Assembly: GCA_043779265.1 (NCBI GenBank)
Contig: JAYWEM010000065.1
Coordinates: forward strand, 1-43,492
Length of the DNA: 43,492 nucleotides
Origin: a bacterium
Lineage (GTDB): Bacteria; Eisenbacteria; RBG-16-71-46
Direction of reading: 5' to 3'
Positions 13,088 to 30,372 of this stretch are shown piece after piece (positions within the stretch are counted from its first letter, which is position 1; every line of letters begins with the position of its first letter). The notes beneath the pieces are model-generated. The model ran no database searches, was not told the origin of the DNA, and was given only the letters and a program-made list of their open reading frames with translations. Position numbers and translations under genes: made by a program.

Positions 13088-13977
13088 TGGCTGCGCCCGA
13101 GCTGCTTCGCCGCGTTCGCCGGCTCGAGATCCGGAGTCGGCACCTCGTCGAGGACCTCTTCACCGGTCGATCCGAGAGTGTGTTCAAGGGCCGCGGCGTC
13201 GAGTTCGAGGAGGTGCGCCCCTACGTCCCCGGCGACGAGGTGCGCGACATCGACTGGAATGTCACCGCCCGGTTGGGTGCGCCCTACGTGAAGCGGTTCG
13301 TCGAGGAACGCGAACTCACCGTGATGCTGGTCGTCGACGTCTCGCGGTCCATGCGGTTCGGGACGCACGGCCAGGATCGCCGCGAACTGGCGGCCGAGTT
13401 GTGCGCCGTGCTCGGGTTCGCTGCGGTGCGGCAGGACGATCGCGTCGGACTCGTCCTGTGCGCGGGTGAGGTCGAGCACTTCGTCCCACCGGCGCGCGGC
13501 CGTCGCCACCTGCTCCGCATCCTGCGCGACCTGCTGGCGCACGAGCCGCGCAGCGACGGCACGCGGCTGGGCGAGGGGGCGAAGTTCCTCGCGCGGAGCC
13601 TCAAGCGGCATGCGCTCGTCTTCTGGATGTCGGATTTCGAGGACACGCTCGATCCGAGGGACTGGCGCGTGCTCTCGAAGCGCCATGAGCTGACGGCTCT
13701 GGCGCTGCGCGACCCGCGCGACGAGGTGCTGCCTTCGGCCGGCTGGGTGGTGATGGAGGATCTCGAGACCGGCCAGCGGCGCATGGTGGACACCGGTTCG
13801 AGCTCCGTGCGGCAGCGCTACCAGACTCAGGCGCGCGAGCGCCGCCGCGCCGCCGAGCAGACGCTCGCCAAGGCGCGCTGTCCTCTGCTCGCGCTCTCGA
13901 CCGATCCCAGGCGTCCCTGGCTCCCCGTCCTGTTGCAGCACTTCGCCTCGCGTCGTCGGGGCCGGGGCCTGGCGTGA
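13087..13977 (+). CDS. DUF58 domain protein (MoxR-associated, VWA-like)
   Basis: KGRGVEFEEVRPYVPGDEVRDIDWNVTAR, VKRFVEERELT, VDVSRSM, MSDF. Confidence 0.93.
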   Translation: MAAPELLRRVRRLEIRSRHLVEDLFTGRSESVFKGRGVEFEEVRPYVPGDEVRDIDWNVTARLGAPYVKRFVEERELTVMLVVDVSRSMRFGTHGQDRRELAAELCAVLGFAAVRQDDRVGLVLCAGEVEHFVPPARGRRHLLRILRDLLAHEPRSDGTRLGEGAKFLARSLKRHALVFWMSDFEDTLDPRDWRVLSKRHELTALALRDPRDEVLPSAGWVVMEDLETGQRRMVDTGSSSVRQRYQTQARERRRAAEQTLAKARCPLLALSTDPRRPWLPVLLQHFASRRRGRGLA

Positions 13978-14999
13978 GAGCGGGGGGGATCATGGCCGCG
14001 ATCGCGATGGTCGGCCTGCTGGCCGATCCCGCCGCCGCTCAGGACAACCTGCCGCCACTCGAGGCGCTGCGAGGAGGCCCGAGGCGGCATGAGAGCGGGG
14101 TTCCCCTGCATGTCTCGGTGCTCCCCTCACCGGCAGCGGTCGGCGCGAAACTGTCGTATCGAGGCTCCGCGGTTGTGGATCGCGTCGTCCGCGTCGACTT
14201 CGTCCGGCCGAAGAGCGCGGGTGCGTTCACGTGGAGTGAGATGAACATCCGGCGCATCCCGTTCGCGAGCCAGGGCGCGTATCAGAACCAGAGTCGTGAC
14301 AGCGTCGTGTTCGAGGCCGTGCTTCAAGTCTTCGAGACCGGTACCGTGGCCATCCCGGGACCCGAGATGCGGCTCGCGGGAGTGCAATGGAGTGCGCGGC
14401 CCGTGCACACGAGGCTTCCGACCGCGCATGTCGTGATCCGTTCGAGCCTCACGGCGGCCGACTCGGCGGCACGATTCCGTGGTCTGCGGGGCCCGCTCGC
14501 AGCGCCTTGGTGGGAGCGCATCAGCTGGTCGCGCGTGTTCGCGGGACTGATCGCCCTGGCGGCGCTCGTGCTGTTCATTCGCATGTTGAGGCGTCGGCGA
14601 CCAGCGAAACCTGTGTCGGGCGCCGCTCCCGGGACGCCTCGCGCGAAGCGCGATGCCGCCACCGAGGCGCTGGATGCCCTGGCCGCGCTTCGGCGCGAGC
14701 AGTTGCCCGAGCAGGGGCGCTTCGATCAGCACGCGTTCGAGCTGACACGCATCCTGAGGCGCTATCTCGAGATCACGTTCGTGGTCCCGAGGCCCGGCGA
14801 CACGAGTGAGGAGCTCATGGAGCGACTGCGTCAGTCGCGCCAGGCCGAGAGCCACGTCGCCCGGCTCGGTGGGCTGCTCGGTGTGTGGGACCGACTCAAG
14901 TTCGCCCGCGCCTCGTCCTCGGTCAACGAAGCTCGCGCCAGTGAGAGCGCGGTCGAGGACGTCATCCGTAGCACCCGAACGCCGGGGCGTGCGGCATGA
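13974..14999 (+). CDS. Membrane-anchored hypothetical of the bat operon (DUF4381/BatD-like)
   Basis: N-terminal signal-like stretch, one TM followed by RRRR, and C-terminal ILRRYLE...TSEEL...D.LKFAR, typical of the gene between DUF58 and batA. Confidence 0.7.
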   Translation: MRAGGIMAAIAMVGLLADPAAAQDNLPPLEALRGGPRRHESGVPLHVSVLPSPAAVGAKLSYRGSAVVDRVVRVDFVRPKSAGAFTWSEMNIRRIPFASQGAYQNQSRDSVVFEAVLQVFETGTVAIPGPEMRLAGVQWSARPVHTRLPTAHVVIRSSLTAADSAARFRGLRGPLAAPWWERISWSRVFAGLIALAALVLFIRMLRRRRPAKPVSGAAPGTPRAKRDAATEALDALAALRREQLPEQGRFDQHAFELTRILRRYLEITFVVPRPGDTSEELMERLRQSRQAESHVARLGGLLGVWDRLKFARASSSVNEARASESAVEDVIRSTRTPGRAA

Positions 15000-15982
15000 T
15001 CCGGTTCGAATACCCTTGGCTTCTGCTGGCGCTCCTGCTCTTGCCGGCTCTGATGATCCTGCGCTGGCGTCGGCCCGACACGCGGCGCCCCGCGGTGCTG
15101 TGGGGCCCGGTTCGCGGCATCCCGGTGGATGTGTGGCGCTCGCGTATCGTGCTGCTGGTCCGCGGCCTTCCGTGGCTCGTGCTCCTGCTGGCGCTGGTGG
15201 CGCTGGCCCGTCCACAGCAGGGCCTCCAGCAGAGCGAGGTGGAATCGAGAGGCGTGGACATCGTGTTGGCACTCGATGTCTCGCCGAGCATGCGGGTGGA
15301 TGACATGGGTGGCGGATCTCGGCTCGATGTCGCGCGTGCGACGGCGATGGACTTCGTGCGAGGCCGGCCGCATGACCGGATCGGGGTCGTGGTGTTCGCT
15401 GGGACGGCGTTCACGCAGTCCCCGCTGACGCTCGACCACGAGACGCTGGTCGACCTCCTGCGTCAGATCGACTTCGGGATGGCCGAGGATGGCACTGCGA
15501 TCGGCATGGGTCTCGCGACGTCCGTCCAACGACTCAAGGACAGCAAGACTCCTTCCAAGGTCGTGCTGCTCCTCACCGATGGCGAGAACAATCGGGGCGC
15601 GATCGATCCGATGACGGCGGCCGAACTCGCGAGCGCCATGGGCATCAAGGTGTACACGGTCCTCGTCGGTCGGCCGACGATGGCGCGTGTCCGTGTCGAT
15701 GACCCGGTGCTCGGGTCCACGTTCGTGCTGCAGCCGGTGGACGTCGATGAGGCGCCGCTGATCGAGATCGCCAAGCGCACGGGTGGCCGTTTCTTCCGAG
15801 CGGGTGACGCCACCGCGCTGGCGGGGATCTACAGCGAGGTGGATCGTCTGGAGCGGGCGCCGATCCGCGCGGTCGTGTTCCGCGAGTATCGCGACCTGGG
15901 TCCGCAACTACTCGCCTGGTGCGCGTTGCTGCTCGCACTCTCGATCGTCTCCAATACGACCTGGGCGTTCCGGGCGCCATGA
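14996..15982 (+). CDS. batA: BatA-like VWA domain protein
   Basis: N-terminal FEYPWLL and LALARPQ, MIDAS DVSPSM, GTAIGMGL, LLTDGENNRG, TGGRFFRA, C-terminal TM. Confidence 0.9.
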   Translation: MIRFEYPWLLLALLLLPALMILRWRRPDTRRPAVLWGPVRGIPVDVWRSRIVLLVRGLPWLVLLLALVALARPQQGLQQSEVESRGVDIVLALDVSPSMRVDDMGGGSRLDVARATAMDFVRGRPHDRIGVVVFAGTAFTQSPLTLDHETLVDLLRQIDFGMAEDGTAIGMGLATSVQRLKDSKTPSKVVLLLTDGENNRGAIDPMTAAELASAMGIKVYTVLVGRPTMARVRVDDPVLGSTFVLQPVDVDEAPLIEIAKRTGGRFFRAGDATALAGIYSEVDRLERAPIRAVVFREYRDLGPQLLAWCALLLALSIVSNTTWAFRAP

Positions 15983-27989: not shown

Positions 27990-28730
27990 ATGACCGCACC
28001 AGTGATCACCCTCGCCTCCCGGGCCGAGGCCGCGATTCGTCGTCTCCGGGACATCGAGGGTGTGAGCGTTCTCAGCACGGGTGACACCATCCGTGAAGTT
28101 CATGTCGTGACCCGCTCGGACCGCGCCCCCAAACTGATCGTGCGCGATGTCCAGACGGTTCTCCGCACCGACCTCGGTGTCACCATCGACCATCGGGTCG
28201 TCTCGGTGGCCCAGGCAGGCCCCGACTCGGCGAAGCTGCCTCCGGAGCGATTCCCCATCGAGGACGTGTTCGCGACCGAGGAGCCGGTTCACGTGCCGCA
28301 CGAGCGGATCCGCTTCGAGAGCGTCAACCTGTTCGTCGCAGGCGCACGCACCCAGGCCCAGGTGGAACTCCGCTGGAAGGGCCTGCCCCGAATGGGCAGC
28401 GCAACCGGCTGGAGCACGCGCGACGAATCGCATCGGCTGGTGGCGCAGGCCGCTGCCGGGGCCGTGCAGGAGTTCCTCGCCGACCCCGTCGCGCTCAGCG
28501 TGCAGACGGTGGAGTTCGTCGACGTGGGGCGGCACCGTCTGGTGGTCGTCGCGCTGAGCATGCTCGTCCATCGACAGGAGCGGCTGCTGTCGGGAACGTG
28601 CCTCGTGACGCAGGACACACCTCAATCGGTCGTTCTCGCCACGCTGTCCGCGCTCAATCGAGTGGTGGGCGGCATGGCGATCAAGGAACCCACGGAATAC
28701 GTCCTGCGGCCGAGCGCCCTGGACGCCTGA
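27990..28730 (+). CDS. Hypothetical protein. C-terminal half resembles the LeuA (2-isopropylmalate synthase) allosteric/dimerisation domain.
   Basis: ATG 27990 after GAAGGAG. N-domain EVHVV..RAPK.IVRDVQT....IDHR.VSVAQ. C-domain with repeated beta-beta-beta-alpha-like units ending GTCLV..D...SVVLATLSALNR. Confidence 0.75.
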   Translation: MTAPVITLASRAEAAIRRLRDIEGVSVLSTGDTIREVHVVTRSDRAPKLIVRDVQTVLRTDLGVTIDHRVVSVAQAGPDSAKLPPERFPIEDVFATEEPVHVPHERIRFESVNLFVAGARTQAQVELRWKGLPRMGSATGWSTRDESHRLVAQAAAGAVQEFLADPVALSVQTVEFVDVGRHRLVVVALSMLVHRQERLLSGTCLVTQDTPQSVVLATLSALNRVVGGMAIKEPTEYVLRPSALDA

Positions 28731-28877
28731 TCGTTCGAGGGCCCGTCGGGGCCCGACCATTGCGGACCGGCATCGTCGGAAGGAGGCGAGCGGAGCGGAG
28801 CAGTCCTAAAGCGAAGCGATCCACGCCTGGGGGATCCGTCCCTCAGCATCCTCGTCGCAAGAAGGAGGTGGACGCTC

Positions 28878-28928
28878 ATGGAGCTGCTTCTCGATATGAT
28901 CGAGCTGTTCGGCAAGGCCGGCTGGTAA
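28878..28928 (+). CDS. Small ORF / micropeptide, 16 aa: MELLLDMIELFGKAGW
   Basis: AAGGAGGT at 28862-28869, 8 nt before ATG 28878, TAA at 28926-28928. Most codons end in G/C like the neighbouring genes. Sits in an otherwise empty 316-nt gap. Confidence 0.7.
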   Translation: MELLLDMIELFGKAGW

Positions 28929-29046
28929 GCCGGTGAGTCGTTGAAGCCACGATGATCACTCCCTTCGCGAAGCCGGTCCCACTTCTTTTCTCTGCAGCCC
29001 GCCGCGCGGGACTCGACCCGTTTCCGCGCGAGATGGATGTCCGACC

Positions 29047-30372
29047 TTGAGCGAAATCCAGAGTCGACGGGGCAAGGCAGCGTTCCGCTCGTATTTCGTG
29101 CTCCTGCTCGTGATCACGGCGGCTGCGCTCGCGCAGTTGGCCCCGGGCACGCCCGCGCCGGCACTCGCTCTGCTGCTCGCGGCTGGAGCACTGCTGGCCA
29201 TTGCGGAGGCCGTTCCGGTTCCCATGCCGAGTGGCGGCTACGTCAGCGCGGCGACCATGATCGAGTTGCCGCTCCTGCTGCTCGCCGGTCCGTTCTGGAC
29301 GTGCTGCGTCGTGCTGGCGGTCACCCTGCTCGTTCATGGGATCCTGAAGCGCCGGGCCCCGCTGCGTGTGGCTCACAATGCCGCGCTGTTCATGGTGATG
29401 ATCGTCTCCGCCTCGATGGTATTCGAATCCCTCGGCGGGACGCCCGGAGCTTTGCGCTTCCCGCGGGACGCGGGGGCGATGGTGGCGGCAGGTCTCACGT
29501 TCTTCGCCGTGAACTCGATCGGCGTCTCGCTCGCCATCGGACTGACGGCGGGCCCCAGCCCGTGGCGGATCTGGCAGCGTGAGTTCCAGCAGGGGATCCT
29601 GCATCACCTCTCGTTCGTGGCACTCGGCGGGTTGGTGGCCGTGATCGTCTCGGCGACCGGTCCGTGGGGACTGGCGCTCTGCGCGCTGCCGTTGCTCGTC
29701 TCGAGGCACTCGTTCCAACTCGACCTGGAGCTGCGAAGCGACCTCAAATCGTTCGTCCGTACGCTGACCGAGGTGCTCGAGGAGGTCGATCCCTATACGC
29801 GCCACCACTCGCATCGGGTCTCGGAGTACTCGGTGCGATTGGCCCGCGGGCTCAGGCGGTCGGAGGCGGAGGTCGAGGAGATCGAATACGCCGCGCTCGT
29901 GCACGACCTCGGCAAGATCGGCCCGGCCCACCAGCACATCCTCCAGAAGCCCGGATCGCTCTCGCACGAGGAGCAACGCACACTGCGCGCGCATCCTGCC
30001 GCGGGAGCCGAGATCGTCAGCAAGGTGAGGGCGTTGCGCCGCGTCTCGGAGATCGTTCGCGCCCACCATGAGCGCCCCGACGGACAGGGCTACCCCTACG
30101 GCCTGCGCTCCGAAGACGTGCCGCTCGGTGCGCGCATCCTGAACGTGGCCGATGCGTTCGACGCGATGACGTCCGACCGACCTTACCGCCGCGCTCTTCC
30201 GATGGACGCCGCCATTCGCGAACTCGAGCGTGGAGCGGGGACGCAGTTCGATGCTCAGGTGGTCGGCTGCCTACTCCGGCTGACGCGCGAGGACCGGTTC
30301 GCACTGATCCCGAGTCCGAGCAGCGAGGATCTCCAGTTGCTCCGGCTCCGCCTGCGCGTGGGAGGGGCGTGA
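29047..30372 (+). CDS. Membrane-integral HD-GYP domain phosphodiesterase (c-di-GMP or related cyclic dinucleotide)
   Basis: About 6-7 hydrophobic segments in the N-terminal half. DPYTRHHS.RV, HDLGK, ILQKPG.L, HHERPDGQGYPYGL, ARIL.VADAFDAMTSDRPYR, GTQFD. Confidence 0.93.
   Translation: MSEIQSRRGKAAFRSYFVLLLVITAAALAQLAPGTPAPALALLLAAGALLAIAEAVPVPMPSGGYVSAATMIELPLLLLAGPFWTCCVVLAVTLLVHGILKRRAPLRVAHNAALFMVMIVSASMVFESLGGTPGALRFPRDAGAMVAAGLTFFAVNSIGVSLAIGLTAGPSPWRIWQREFQQGILHHLSFVALGGLVAVIVSATGPWGLALCALPLLVSRHSFQLDLELRSDLKSFVRTLTEVLEEVDPYTRHHSHRVSEYSVRLARGLRRSEAEVEEIEYAALVHDLGKIGPAHQHILQKPGSLSHEEQRTLRAHPAAGAEIVSKVRALRRVSEIVRAHHERPDGQGYPYGLRSEDVPLGARILNVADAFDAMTSDRPYRRALPMDAAIRELERGAGTQFDAQVVGCLLRLTREDRFALIPSPSSEDLQLLRLRLRVGGA

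Follow-up and report, generated by a model that had tools for sequence, protein, structure and literature searches.

A conserved micro-gene ahead of a membrane HD-GYP gene, and its GKAGW tail as a candidate ligand of MASE9 sensors

The micro-gene and its neighbors

Is a reading frame of only 16 codons, lying between two longer genes, itself a gene, and what could so short a product do? The frame lies in a bacterial contig of 43,492 nt (the window, meaning the whole stretch of DNA that was analyzed), at 28878..28928 on the plus strand, which carries all of the window features described here. Its codons are MELLLDMIELFGKAGW, the last being TGG, followed by TAA (ending at 28928), and the Shine-Dalgarno (SD) sequence AAGGAGGT (28862..28869) precedes the ATG at 28878 by 8 nt. 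The preliminary description of this DNA had given these elements, and each is in place. It had also reported an acidic/hydrophobic N-terminal part and a GKAGW tail; the N-terminal part is amphipathic (hydrophobic residues at 3, 4, 5, 7, 8, 10 and 11; acidic or polar residues at 2, 6 and 9), and both it and the C-terminal GKAGW core are conserved in relatives. The window, both strands included, has a single copy of the SD 8-mer; the 3.43 Mb genome has 56. Genome-wide, at 68% G+C, 405 of 1287 SD-start pairs open short ORFs of 6–60 codons, and because SD-led short ORFs are so common, the case for the micro-gene rests on comparison. An NCBIfam search with its frame gave no match.

For this comparison, 61 related genomes were searched and the orthologous locus was read in 54; six loci were left out because of contig breaks (G001, G002, G049) or the lack of a full-length match (G046, G053, G055), and a seventh was that of G038, which is included in the 61-genome tallies (upstream homologue, lipoprotein, DUF5317 and MASE9 matches). 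An SD-led ORF of 8–50 codons with the tail lies ahead of the orthologous HD-GYP gene at 52 of the 54 loci (51 by script and L037 by inspection), the exceptions being L046 and L049, and at all 35 loci of the window's own family. Among 23 sixteen-codon copies, the majority base has a share of 0.90 at second codon positions and 0.64 at third positions, and pN/pS is lower in the last five codons (0.31) than in codons 2–11 (0.59). Trp16 is kept in 23/23, and the starts and stops differ between synonymous options. Across the aligned copies, the codon-position bias and pN/pS have the pattern of coding sequence, most strongly in the tail. The preliminary description had named conservation of the frame, SD and terminal Trp, and substitution rates in aligned ORFs, as checks, and both favor a gene. 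On this comparative evidence, the 16-codon ORF is a real, conserved micro-gene ahead of a membrane HD-GYP gene.

The N-terminal part varies in length among loci, and the tail does not. The shortest variant (L027, in G015) has 8 codons, with an intact tail and almost no hydrophobic part, the helix being reduced to three residues. Three tandem GK[AG]GW cores are present at L035 and L039–L041 (four genomes of one genus), and three tandem cores of another kind, GGHAWW, at L037 in one distant genome. Some copies extend past the core, ending in GWF, GWM, GWGPGGP or GWGG. A blind pattern scan of 13 of the 64 parts of GTDB found the membrane HD-GYP gene downstream of 11 of 19 in-frame matches versus 0 of 101 other matches; four of the 11 peptides are identical to those of the relatives and so are not independent. 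In those 13 parts, an exact G[KR][AG]GW micro-gene precedes a MASE9 gene only in Eisenbacteria or unnamed bacteria. A looser tail pattern, applied to five genomes, gave match counts at control level. With a Lys-only pattern in five other genomes, there were ten matches with a true stop, nine of them micro-genes or lipoproteins and one a short frame with no evident gene.

The neighbors in the window are argS, a PfkB kinase gene, a gene for a 246-aa protein directly upstream, the HD-GYP gene, a purM-like gene and a sigma-54 activator gene; no exporter or maturation enzyme is found among the cassette neighbors. Close homologues of the neighboring proteins carry the label Candidatus Eisenbacteria.

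The downstream gene (29047..30372) encodes a membrane protein of 441 aa, with a MASE9-type membrane domain and an HD-GYP domain. The latter matches Pfam HD_5 (E 8e-37) and has HDLGK, GYP and RPYR motifs, so that the HD, GYP and RxY[KR] signatures of HD-GYP domains are all present. The enzyme is predicted from its sequence to be a cyclic-dinucleotide phosphodiesterase that breaks down c-di-GMP, and is the candidate receptor. The window protein's own membrane domain has no match to Pfam MASE9 (PF20972), but 32 of 48 aligned orthologues do (E<=0.01). It also shares 31% identity over 206 aa with a MASE9 protein encoded elsewhere in its genome. The PF20972 cut-off is also passed by 9 of 10 Bacillota and Gemmatimonadota homologues. 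In the MASE9-HD-GYP phosphodiesterases TM1467 of T. maritima and HdgA of S. venezuelae, HD-GYP is likewise fused to a membrane domain of the MASE9 family, to which orthologues link the window's domain; one Streptomyces genome, searched with the Pfam model, gave no match. When the membrane domain was compared as a profile with solved structures, there were chance matches only.

The upstream gene (27990..28730) has a homologue in 56 of the 61 related genomes, and its 246-aa product matches no Pfam or NCBIfam family. The model (pLDDT 89) has two predicted domains. The C-terminal one resembles the LeuA/CimA regulatory domain (Foldseek E 1e-5 for LeuA and 1e-3 for CimA), and there are weaker Foldseek matches to double-stranded-RNA-binding (dsRBD) domains. 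On this model, possible targets of the protein are the leader helix and the AGCG boxes described below.

Using a profile of the upstream protein, we sampled the 30 best loci each from Bacillota and Gemmatimonadota, a choice biased to close homologues (the search also includes G443 and G483). In Bacillota a MASE9 gene is next at 24 of 30 loci, with an SD-led hydrophobic micro-ORF between the two genes in 24/24; these micro-ORFs are signal-peptide-like and end in LAGGA plus 3–6 residues. In Gemmatimonadota a MASE9 gene is next at 21 of 29 loci, with an SD-led micro-ORF in 21/21 (for two Gemmatimonadota-record loci, the right micro-ORF was taken from the listing rather than from the script's first pick). 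On inspection, no such micro-ORF was seen at nine loci that lack an adjacent MASE9 gene, and five more loci are cut by contig ends. In an actinomycete (L344, in G086; minus strand), two near-identical 25-aa micro-genes lie one after the other ahead of a MASE9 gene; a single AGCGGAGCG box precedes them, and the upstream-type gene is divergently oriented. By sequence comparison, cassettes of this kind are present in several phyla: in relatives within the Eisenbacteria, in Bacillota and Gemmatimonadota, and in one actinomycete.

The same tail on predicted lipoproteins

GKAGW followed by a stop codon occurs three times in the six frames of the genome, versus 0.01–0.02 expected, while 59 other orderings of the same letters before a stop do not occur. 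All three occurrences end real-looking genes. Besides the micro-gene, these encode two lipoprotein-like proteins with no Pfam match, whose signal peptides were judged by pattern: one of 182 aa (G000:C175:13729-14277) and one of about 200 aa (L062, G000:C11:19042-19689). A stand-alone MASE9 gene lies 5 nt downstream of the first (the pair, L061 and L063, spans 13729-15077); its product has no output domain and scores 28.3 bits against the Pfam cut-off of 24.3. In this 92%-complete genome, each of the two MASE9-type genes found thus comes directly after a GKAGW gene. The second lipoprotein gene lies upstream of a run of multiheme cytochrome c, molybdopterin and NrfD-type genes, which we take to be alternative complex III-like; the neighborhood of L072 is alike.

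The lipoprotein model (pLDDT 90) is a beta-sandwich of the ZU5/GAIN type (Foldseek: ankyrin ZU5, E 8e-5; BAI3 GAIN, E 2e-3; TM about 0.5). An HFS motif sits in the turn ahead of the last strand, between strands 140–145 and 150–155, and the tail lies beyond. In an alignment of 28 rows, F148 is invariant, and H147 and S149 are present in at least 90%. The H-x-[ST] motif of MAIN, GAIN and ZU5 domains is thus present, with autocleavage predicted, and most copies end 8–16 residues past the serine. Two copies (L332 and L333) keep the tail and have no HFS, so cleavage would not be obligatory. The family is found in 35 of the 61 genomes, and a [KR]xGW or TAGW tail ends 45 of its 56 complete ORFs. Among 30 lipoprotein loci examined, nine have a MASE9 neighbor and most have none, some tail-bearing genes preceding unrelated genes instead.

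How closely do the tails of the two gene classes agree? In 18 of the 24 genomes with both classes, the last five residues of peptide and lipoprotein match exactly, versus 6.2 on re-pairing (0 of 100000 re-pairings reach 18). The agreement is similar within the window's family (16/19 versus 7.5) and in a one-per-genus subset (13/16 versus 6.1). The shared rare variants, namely KSGW, KGGW, SKAGW, TKAGW, GRAGW and aromatic-RAGW, sit on separate branches of a quick tree, and their codons partly differ. Where the peptide deviates from the usual residue at positions −5, −4 or −3, all lipoprotein copies of that genome deviate too (6/6, 6/6 and 3/3). A tree-aware test of independent pairs has 2–3 pairs per position, none wrong-way and none significant; it is underpowered, and kin are not independent. 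Six of the 24 genomes have no exact match (e.g., G034, K/R; G011 and G016, at −5), which counts against a shared signal. In G050, outside the 24, a micro-gene peptide ahead of a MASE9 kinase ends in GAGWG and the lipoprotein in TAGWGG.

A tail-bearing lipoprotein gene precedes 14 of 19 evaluable stand-alone MASE9 genes. From about 90 non-orthologous MASE9-type matches, 40 further loci were read (28 kinases, 6 stand-alone genes and 6 HD-GYP paralogues). An adjacent tail gene is missing at 27 of the 28 kinase loci (only G050 has a micro-gene beside one), at 5 of the 19 stand-alone genes (the further six comprise five without a tail gene and one that is cut), and at five of the six paralogue loci, the sixth being cut. 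We count these three absences against the idea that MASE9 reads the tail, as we do the lack of a lipoprotein homologue in 26 of the 61 genomes. A MASE9 histidine kinase, possibly a second receptor, is present in most relatives (L397–L421, L426, L428); it was not found in the 92%-complete window genome.

In the Gemmatimonadota and Bacillota genomes that were checked, HFS proteins have no tail that matches the micropeptides. This too counts against such a role for MASE9, and the fused form therefore seems confined to the class to which the window's organism belongs. Four short Gemmatimonadota HFS proteins (L306, L293, L284, L292) end a few residues past the motif (YAIAW, YAIAF, YAIAL). Comparison of these sequences suggests that the xGW tail was added to an ancestor resembling them.

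The leader RNA

The micro-gene is enclosed by a 12-bp helix that pairs the start of the leader with the region past the stop codon. The 5′ arm, GGACCGGC, is at 28764..28771, and the 3′ arm, GCCGGTCC (28972-28979), runs into a pyrimidine stretch (28972..28993 overall). In the alignment, 96% of cells are paired and 7 of the 12 pairs have two-sided changes, support that exceeds 500 of 500 shuffles and every slid control; the covariation was scored on the sequences used to draw the structure, which favors it. The helix persists where its 5′ arm falls outside the upstream gene. An inner extension is poorly supported (64% paired). A probable anti-SD stretch at 28820..28828, CCCACCT in most relatives and imperfect here, forms a stem with 82% of cells paired and little covariation (a two-sided change at 1 of 7 pairs), and predicted folds mostly keep the SD base-paired. 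The mean folding z is −3.7 for 32 loci cut at the helix ends, and the window gives −3.5 for 225 nt chosen at those ends and −0.5 for 306 nt; folding strength depends on the span taken.

Two AGCG(A/G)AGCG boxes, at 28789-28797 and 28810-28818 (28789..28818), are the only such pair in the genome, versus 239 single boxes, and a looser form occurs at least twice at 48 of 54 loci. The boxes are probable binding sites. Rfam gave no match near the gathering score, to a riboswitch or otherwise, in the window region or at 20 loci. Scans with consensus patterns found no sigma-70 promoter and did not call the 3′ arm and pyrimidine run a terminator; the single terminator-like match lies inside the HD-GYP gene, near chance level. 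A G+C-rich hairpin (29002-29031) lies directly 5′ of the TTG start of the HD-GYP gene, which has no clear SD. Whichever of the following readings holds, the RNA fold probably adds a second, regulatory level.

What the tail may do

Because the C-terminus, in its genome-specific form, is shared by two unrelated precursors, both are probably recognized by a single reader. MASE9 recurs beside both precursors, and is argued to bind its ligand within the membrane (Galperin & Chou, bioRxiv 10.1101/2021.11.05.467447), which leads us to read the tail as a MASE9 ligand; the main text of that preprint names no ligand, and the word 'peptide' is absent from it. Since the tail also ends unrelated proteins that are predicted to be exported, it is likely a signal for MASE9 sensors. 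Our favored explanation is that the GKAGW tail is a peptide ligand of these sensors and tunes c-di-GMP breakdown. We give it a probability of roughly 0.55, from the coding-type conservation, synteny, shared tail, neighborhoods and covarying RNA helix.

The micro-gene peptide would enter or cross the membrane and so present its tail on the outer face, where that of the ZU5/GAIN-like proteins, which are predicted to be exported, would also lie. The tail may act tethered or after clipping (the tandem cores of some relatives point to processing), and lipoprotein tails could be freed or exposed by autocleavage between the F and S of HFS. Binding to the MASE9-type membrane domain would then tune c-di-GMP breakdown by activating or inhibiting the HD-GYP enzyme. 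The RNA fold would limit translation of the micro-gene and might tie this translation to the gene downstream. Further points weigh against this reading: the N-region of the window peptide carries no positive charge, which leaves no evident export route; the peptide of one relative (L027) has only 8 residues; and an enzyme or transporter common to both precursors would account for the shared tail just as well.

In peptide quorum sensing, short precursors are paired with membrane receptors (AgrD/AgrC, ComC/ComD, ComX/ComP), and others are of the SHP/Phr type. The micro-gene is like these in its short product with a hydrophobic N-terminal part and a C-terminal core, in its place beside a candidate receptor gene and in its genome-specific variants. 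It differs in having an HD-GYP enzyme as output and in a cassette that contains no dedicated exporter or maturation enzyme, and the peptide has neither a double-glycine leader nor a cyclization residue.

The lipoproteins resemble MAIN/GAIN and ZU5 domains in their predicted beta-sandwich, with HFS before the last strand. MAIN domains cleave at a motif in the loop before the last strand, the C-terminal piece being the anchor and the N-terminal cargo being released; the C-terminal fragment has no known part in signaling, as the preprint states (Brogan & Rudner, bioRxiv 10.64898/2026.05.12.724683). Unlike in MAIN proteins, the predicted anchor here is N-terminal, and the C-terminal fragment would be 9–17 residues that end in the micropeptide core; a C-terminal anchor with a released N-terminal cargo is not seen. 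A bolder form of the ligand explanation is a two-gene logic like that of adhesion GPCRs. The lipoprotein would cleave itself within HFS and free a Stachel-like GKAGW that acts on MASE9. The micro-gene would encode this agonist on its own, as a pheromone that varies from genome to genome, and c-di-GMP and kinase outputs would be fed from both sources. We put this forward tentatively, as a possibility with the odds clearly against it.

The tail might instead be a C-terminal tag for a protein that processes, modifies, exports or anchors, such as a protease or a Trp-modifying enzyme, the adjacency of MASE9 then reflecting a shared pathway or MASE9 itself handling the tag. Tail matching within genomes would fit any shared reader, and the 21 of 30 lipoprotein loci with no MASE9 neighbor are as such a tag would have it. 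An Atlas cluster of stand-alone MASE9 proteins carries an automatic transporter name, and one of its members weakly matches an ECF substrate-binding family (E 0.014), so that an ECF S-component-like fold for MASE9 is a weak lead. However, the cassette offers no candidate enzyme, a search for DUF5317 in the 61 relatives gave none, MASE9 is fused to HD-GYP and kinase outputs, and a peptide of 16 or 8 aa with no other cargo leaves little to sort. We consider a tag unlikely.

A cis-acting leader or arrest peptide would make the released product irrelevant: translation, or stalling at KAGW-stop, would open the helix and set transcription or translation of the HD-GYP gene. The leader RNA suits this, with its covarying 12-bp helix kept where the 5′ arm leaves the upstream gene, its mostly paired SD and the pyrimidine run after the 3′ arm, and an exported protein with a C-terminal motif and a downstream membrane-protein gene has the layout of a secretion monitor. 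RAGW resembles the RAGP/RAPP motifs of Sec/YidC arrest peptides, which likewise follow a hydrophobic segment upstream of a membrane-protein gene, and arrest at a stop codon is described there (PMC10987492). But the final Pro needed in the RAGP case is replaced by Trp, RAGW is not in the main text of that paper, and no sec or yidC gene is downstream. Internal tandem cores, C-terminal extensions and tail-bearing lipoproteins with unrelated downstream genes are at odds with stalling at one fixed stop codon. It is also difficult to see the ribosome behind variants that differ from genome to genome within a single family, and the folding strength is span-dependent. Small membrane-associated proteins of C. 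difficile, tied to c-di-GMP by a structured leader (PMC13724677), are similar in both respects; as presented in that paper they are outputs of a c-di-GMP riboswitch, whereas here the micro-gene is tied to a phosphodiesterase and no Rfam riboswitch was matched. As the whole explanation, an arrest peptide seems rather improbable.

A fixed accessory subunit, that is, a small membrane helix bound to MASE9 in a structural or inhibitory role with no signal and no processing, would be a partner of the type of MgrB and AcrZ. The near-universal linkage to the receptor gene and the hydrophobic helix agree with this, as do the peptides of Bacillota and some relatives, which are long enough to span the membrane. 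A helix cut to three residues with its tail kept, the triple cores and the presence of the same tail on lipoproteins with soluble domains do not, and we regard this as quite improbable. A type I toxin, its mRNA closed by 5′–3′ pairing and the anti-SD stem, has only a very slight chance: in such mRNAs, too, the encoded peptide is small and hydrophobic, pairing reaches over long distances and the SD is masked, but this gene is single-copy at a fixed place in a signaling operon in four phyla, has an 8-residue variant and no Rfam family, and shows no minus-strand promoter or terminator in consensus scans.

The preliminary description had offered a signaling precursor, a membrane regulator and a leader peptide without choosing among them, and its interpretation holds in part. 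The first two gain from the conserved amphipathic N-terminal part and tail, the tandem cores, the predicted exported proteins with the same tail and the MASE9 neighbors. The third loses ground as the sole function, and is helped by the position of the ORF within a conserved RNA fold with a paired SD. The MASE9-type HD-GYP partner, the RNA helix and the second class of tail-bearing genes had escaped it.

Searches of freely accessible papers gave no description of the cassette or tail. The cassette is multi-phylum and has no description among those papers, and its tail, on comparative evidence, is a recognized peptide motif. The micro-gene system is a candidate for peptide-to-membrane-sensor signaling, with GKAGW as a testable candidate ligand of MASE9, a sensor domain that is widespread and for which no ligand is known. 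Natural pairs, cognate and non-cognate, come with the shared, covarying tail of five residues, and because it is also a cheap candidate ligand, both the question of the MASE9 ligand and that of the GAIN fragment can be tested with synthetic peptides. If the ligand reading is true, c-di-GMP signaling in several phyla would gain a peptide input whose genes are too short to be annotated routinely.
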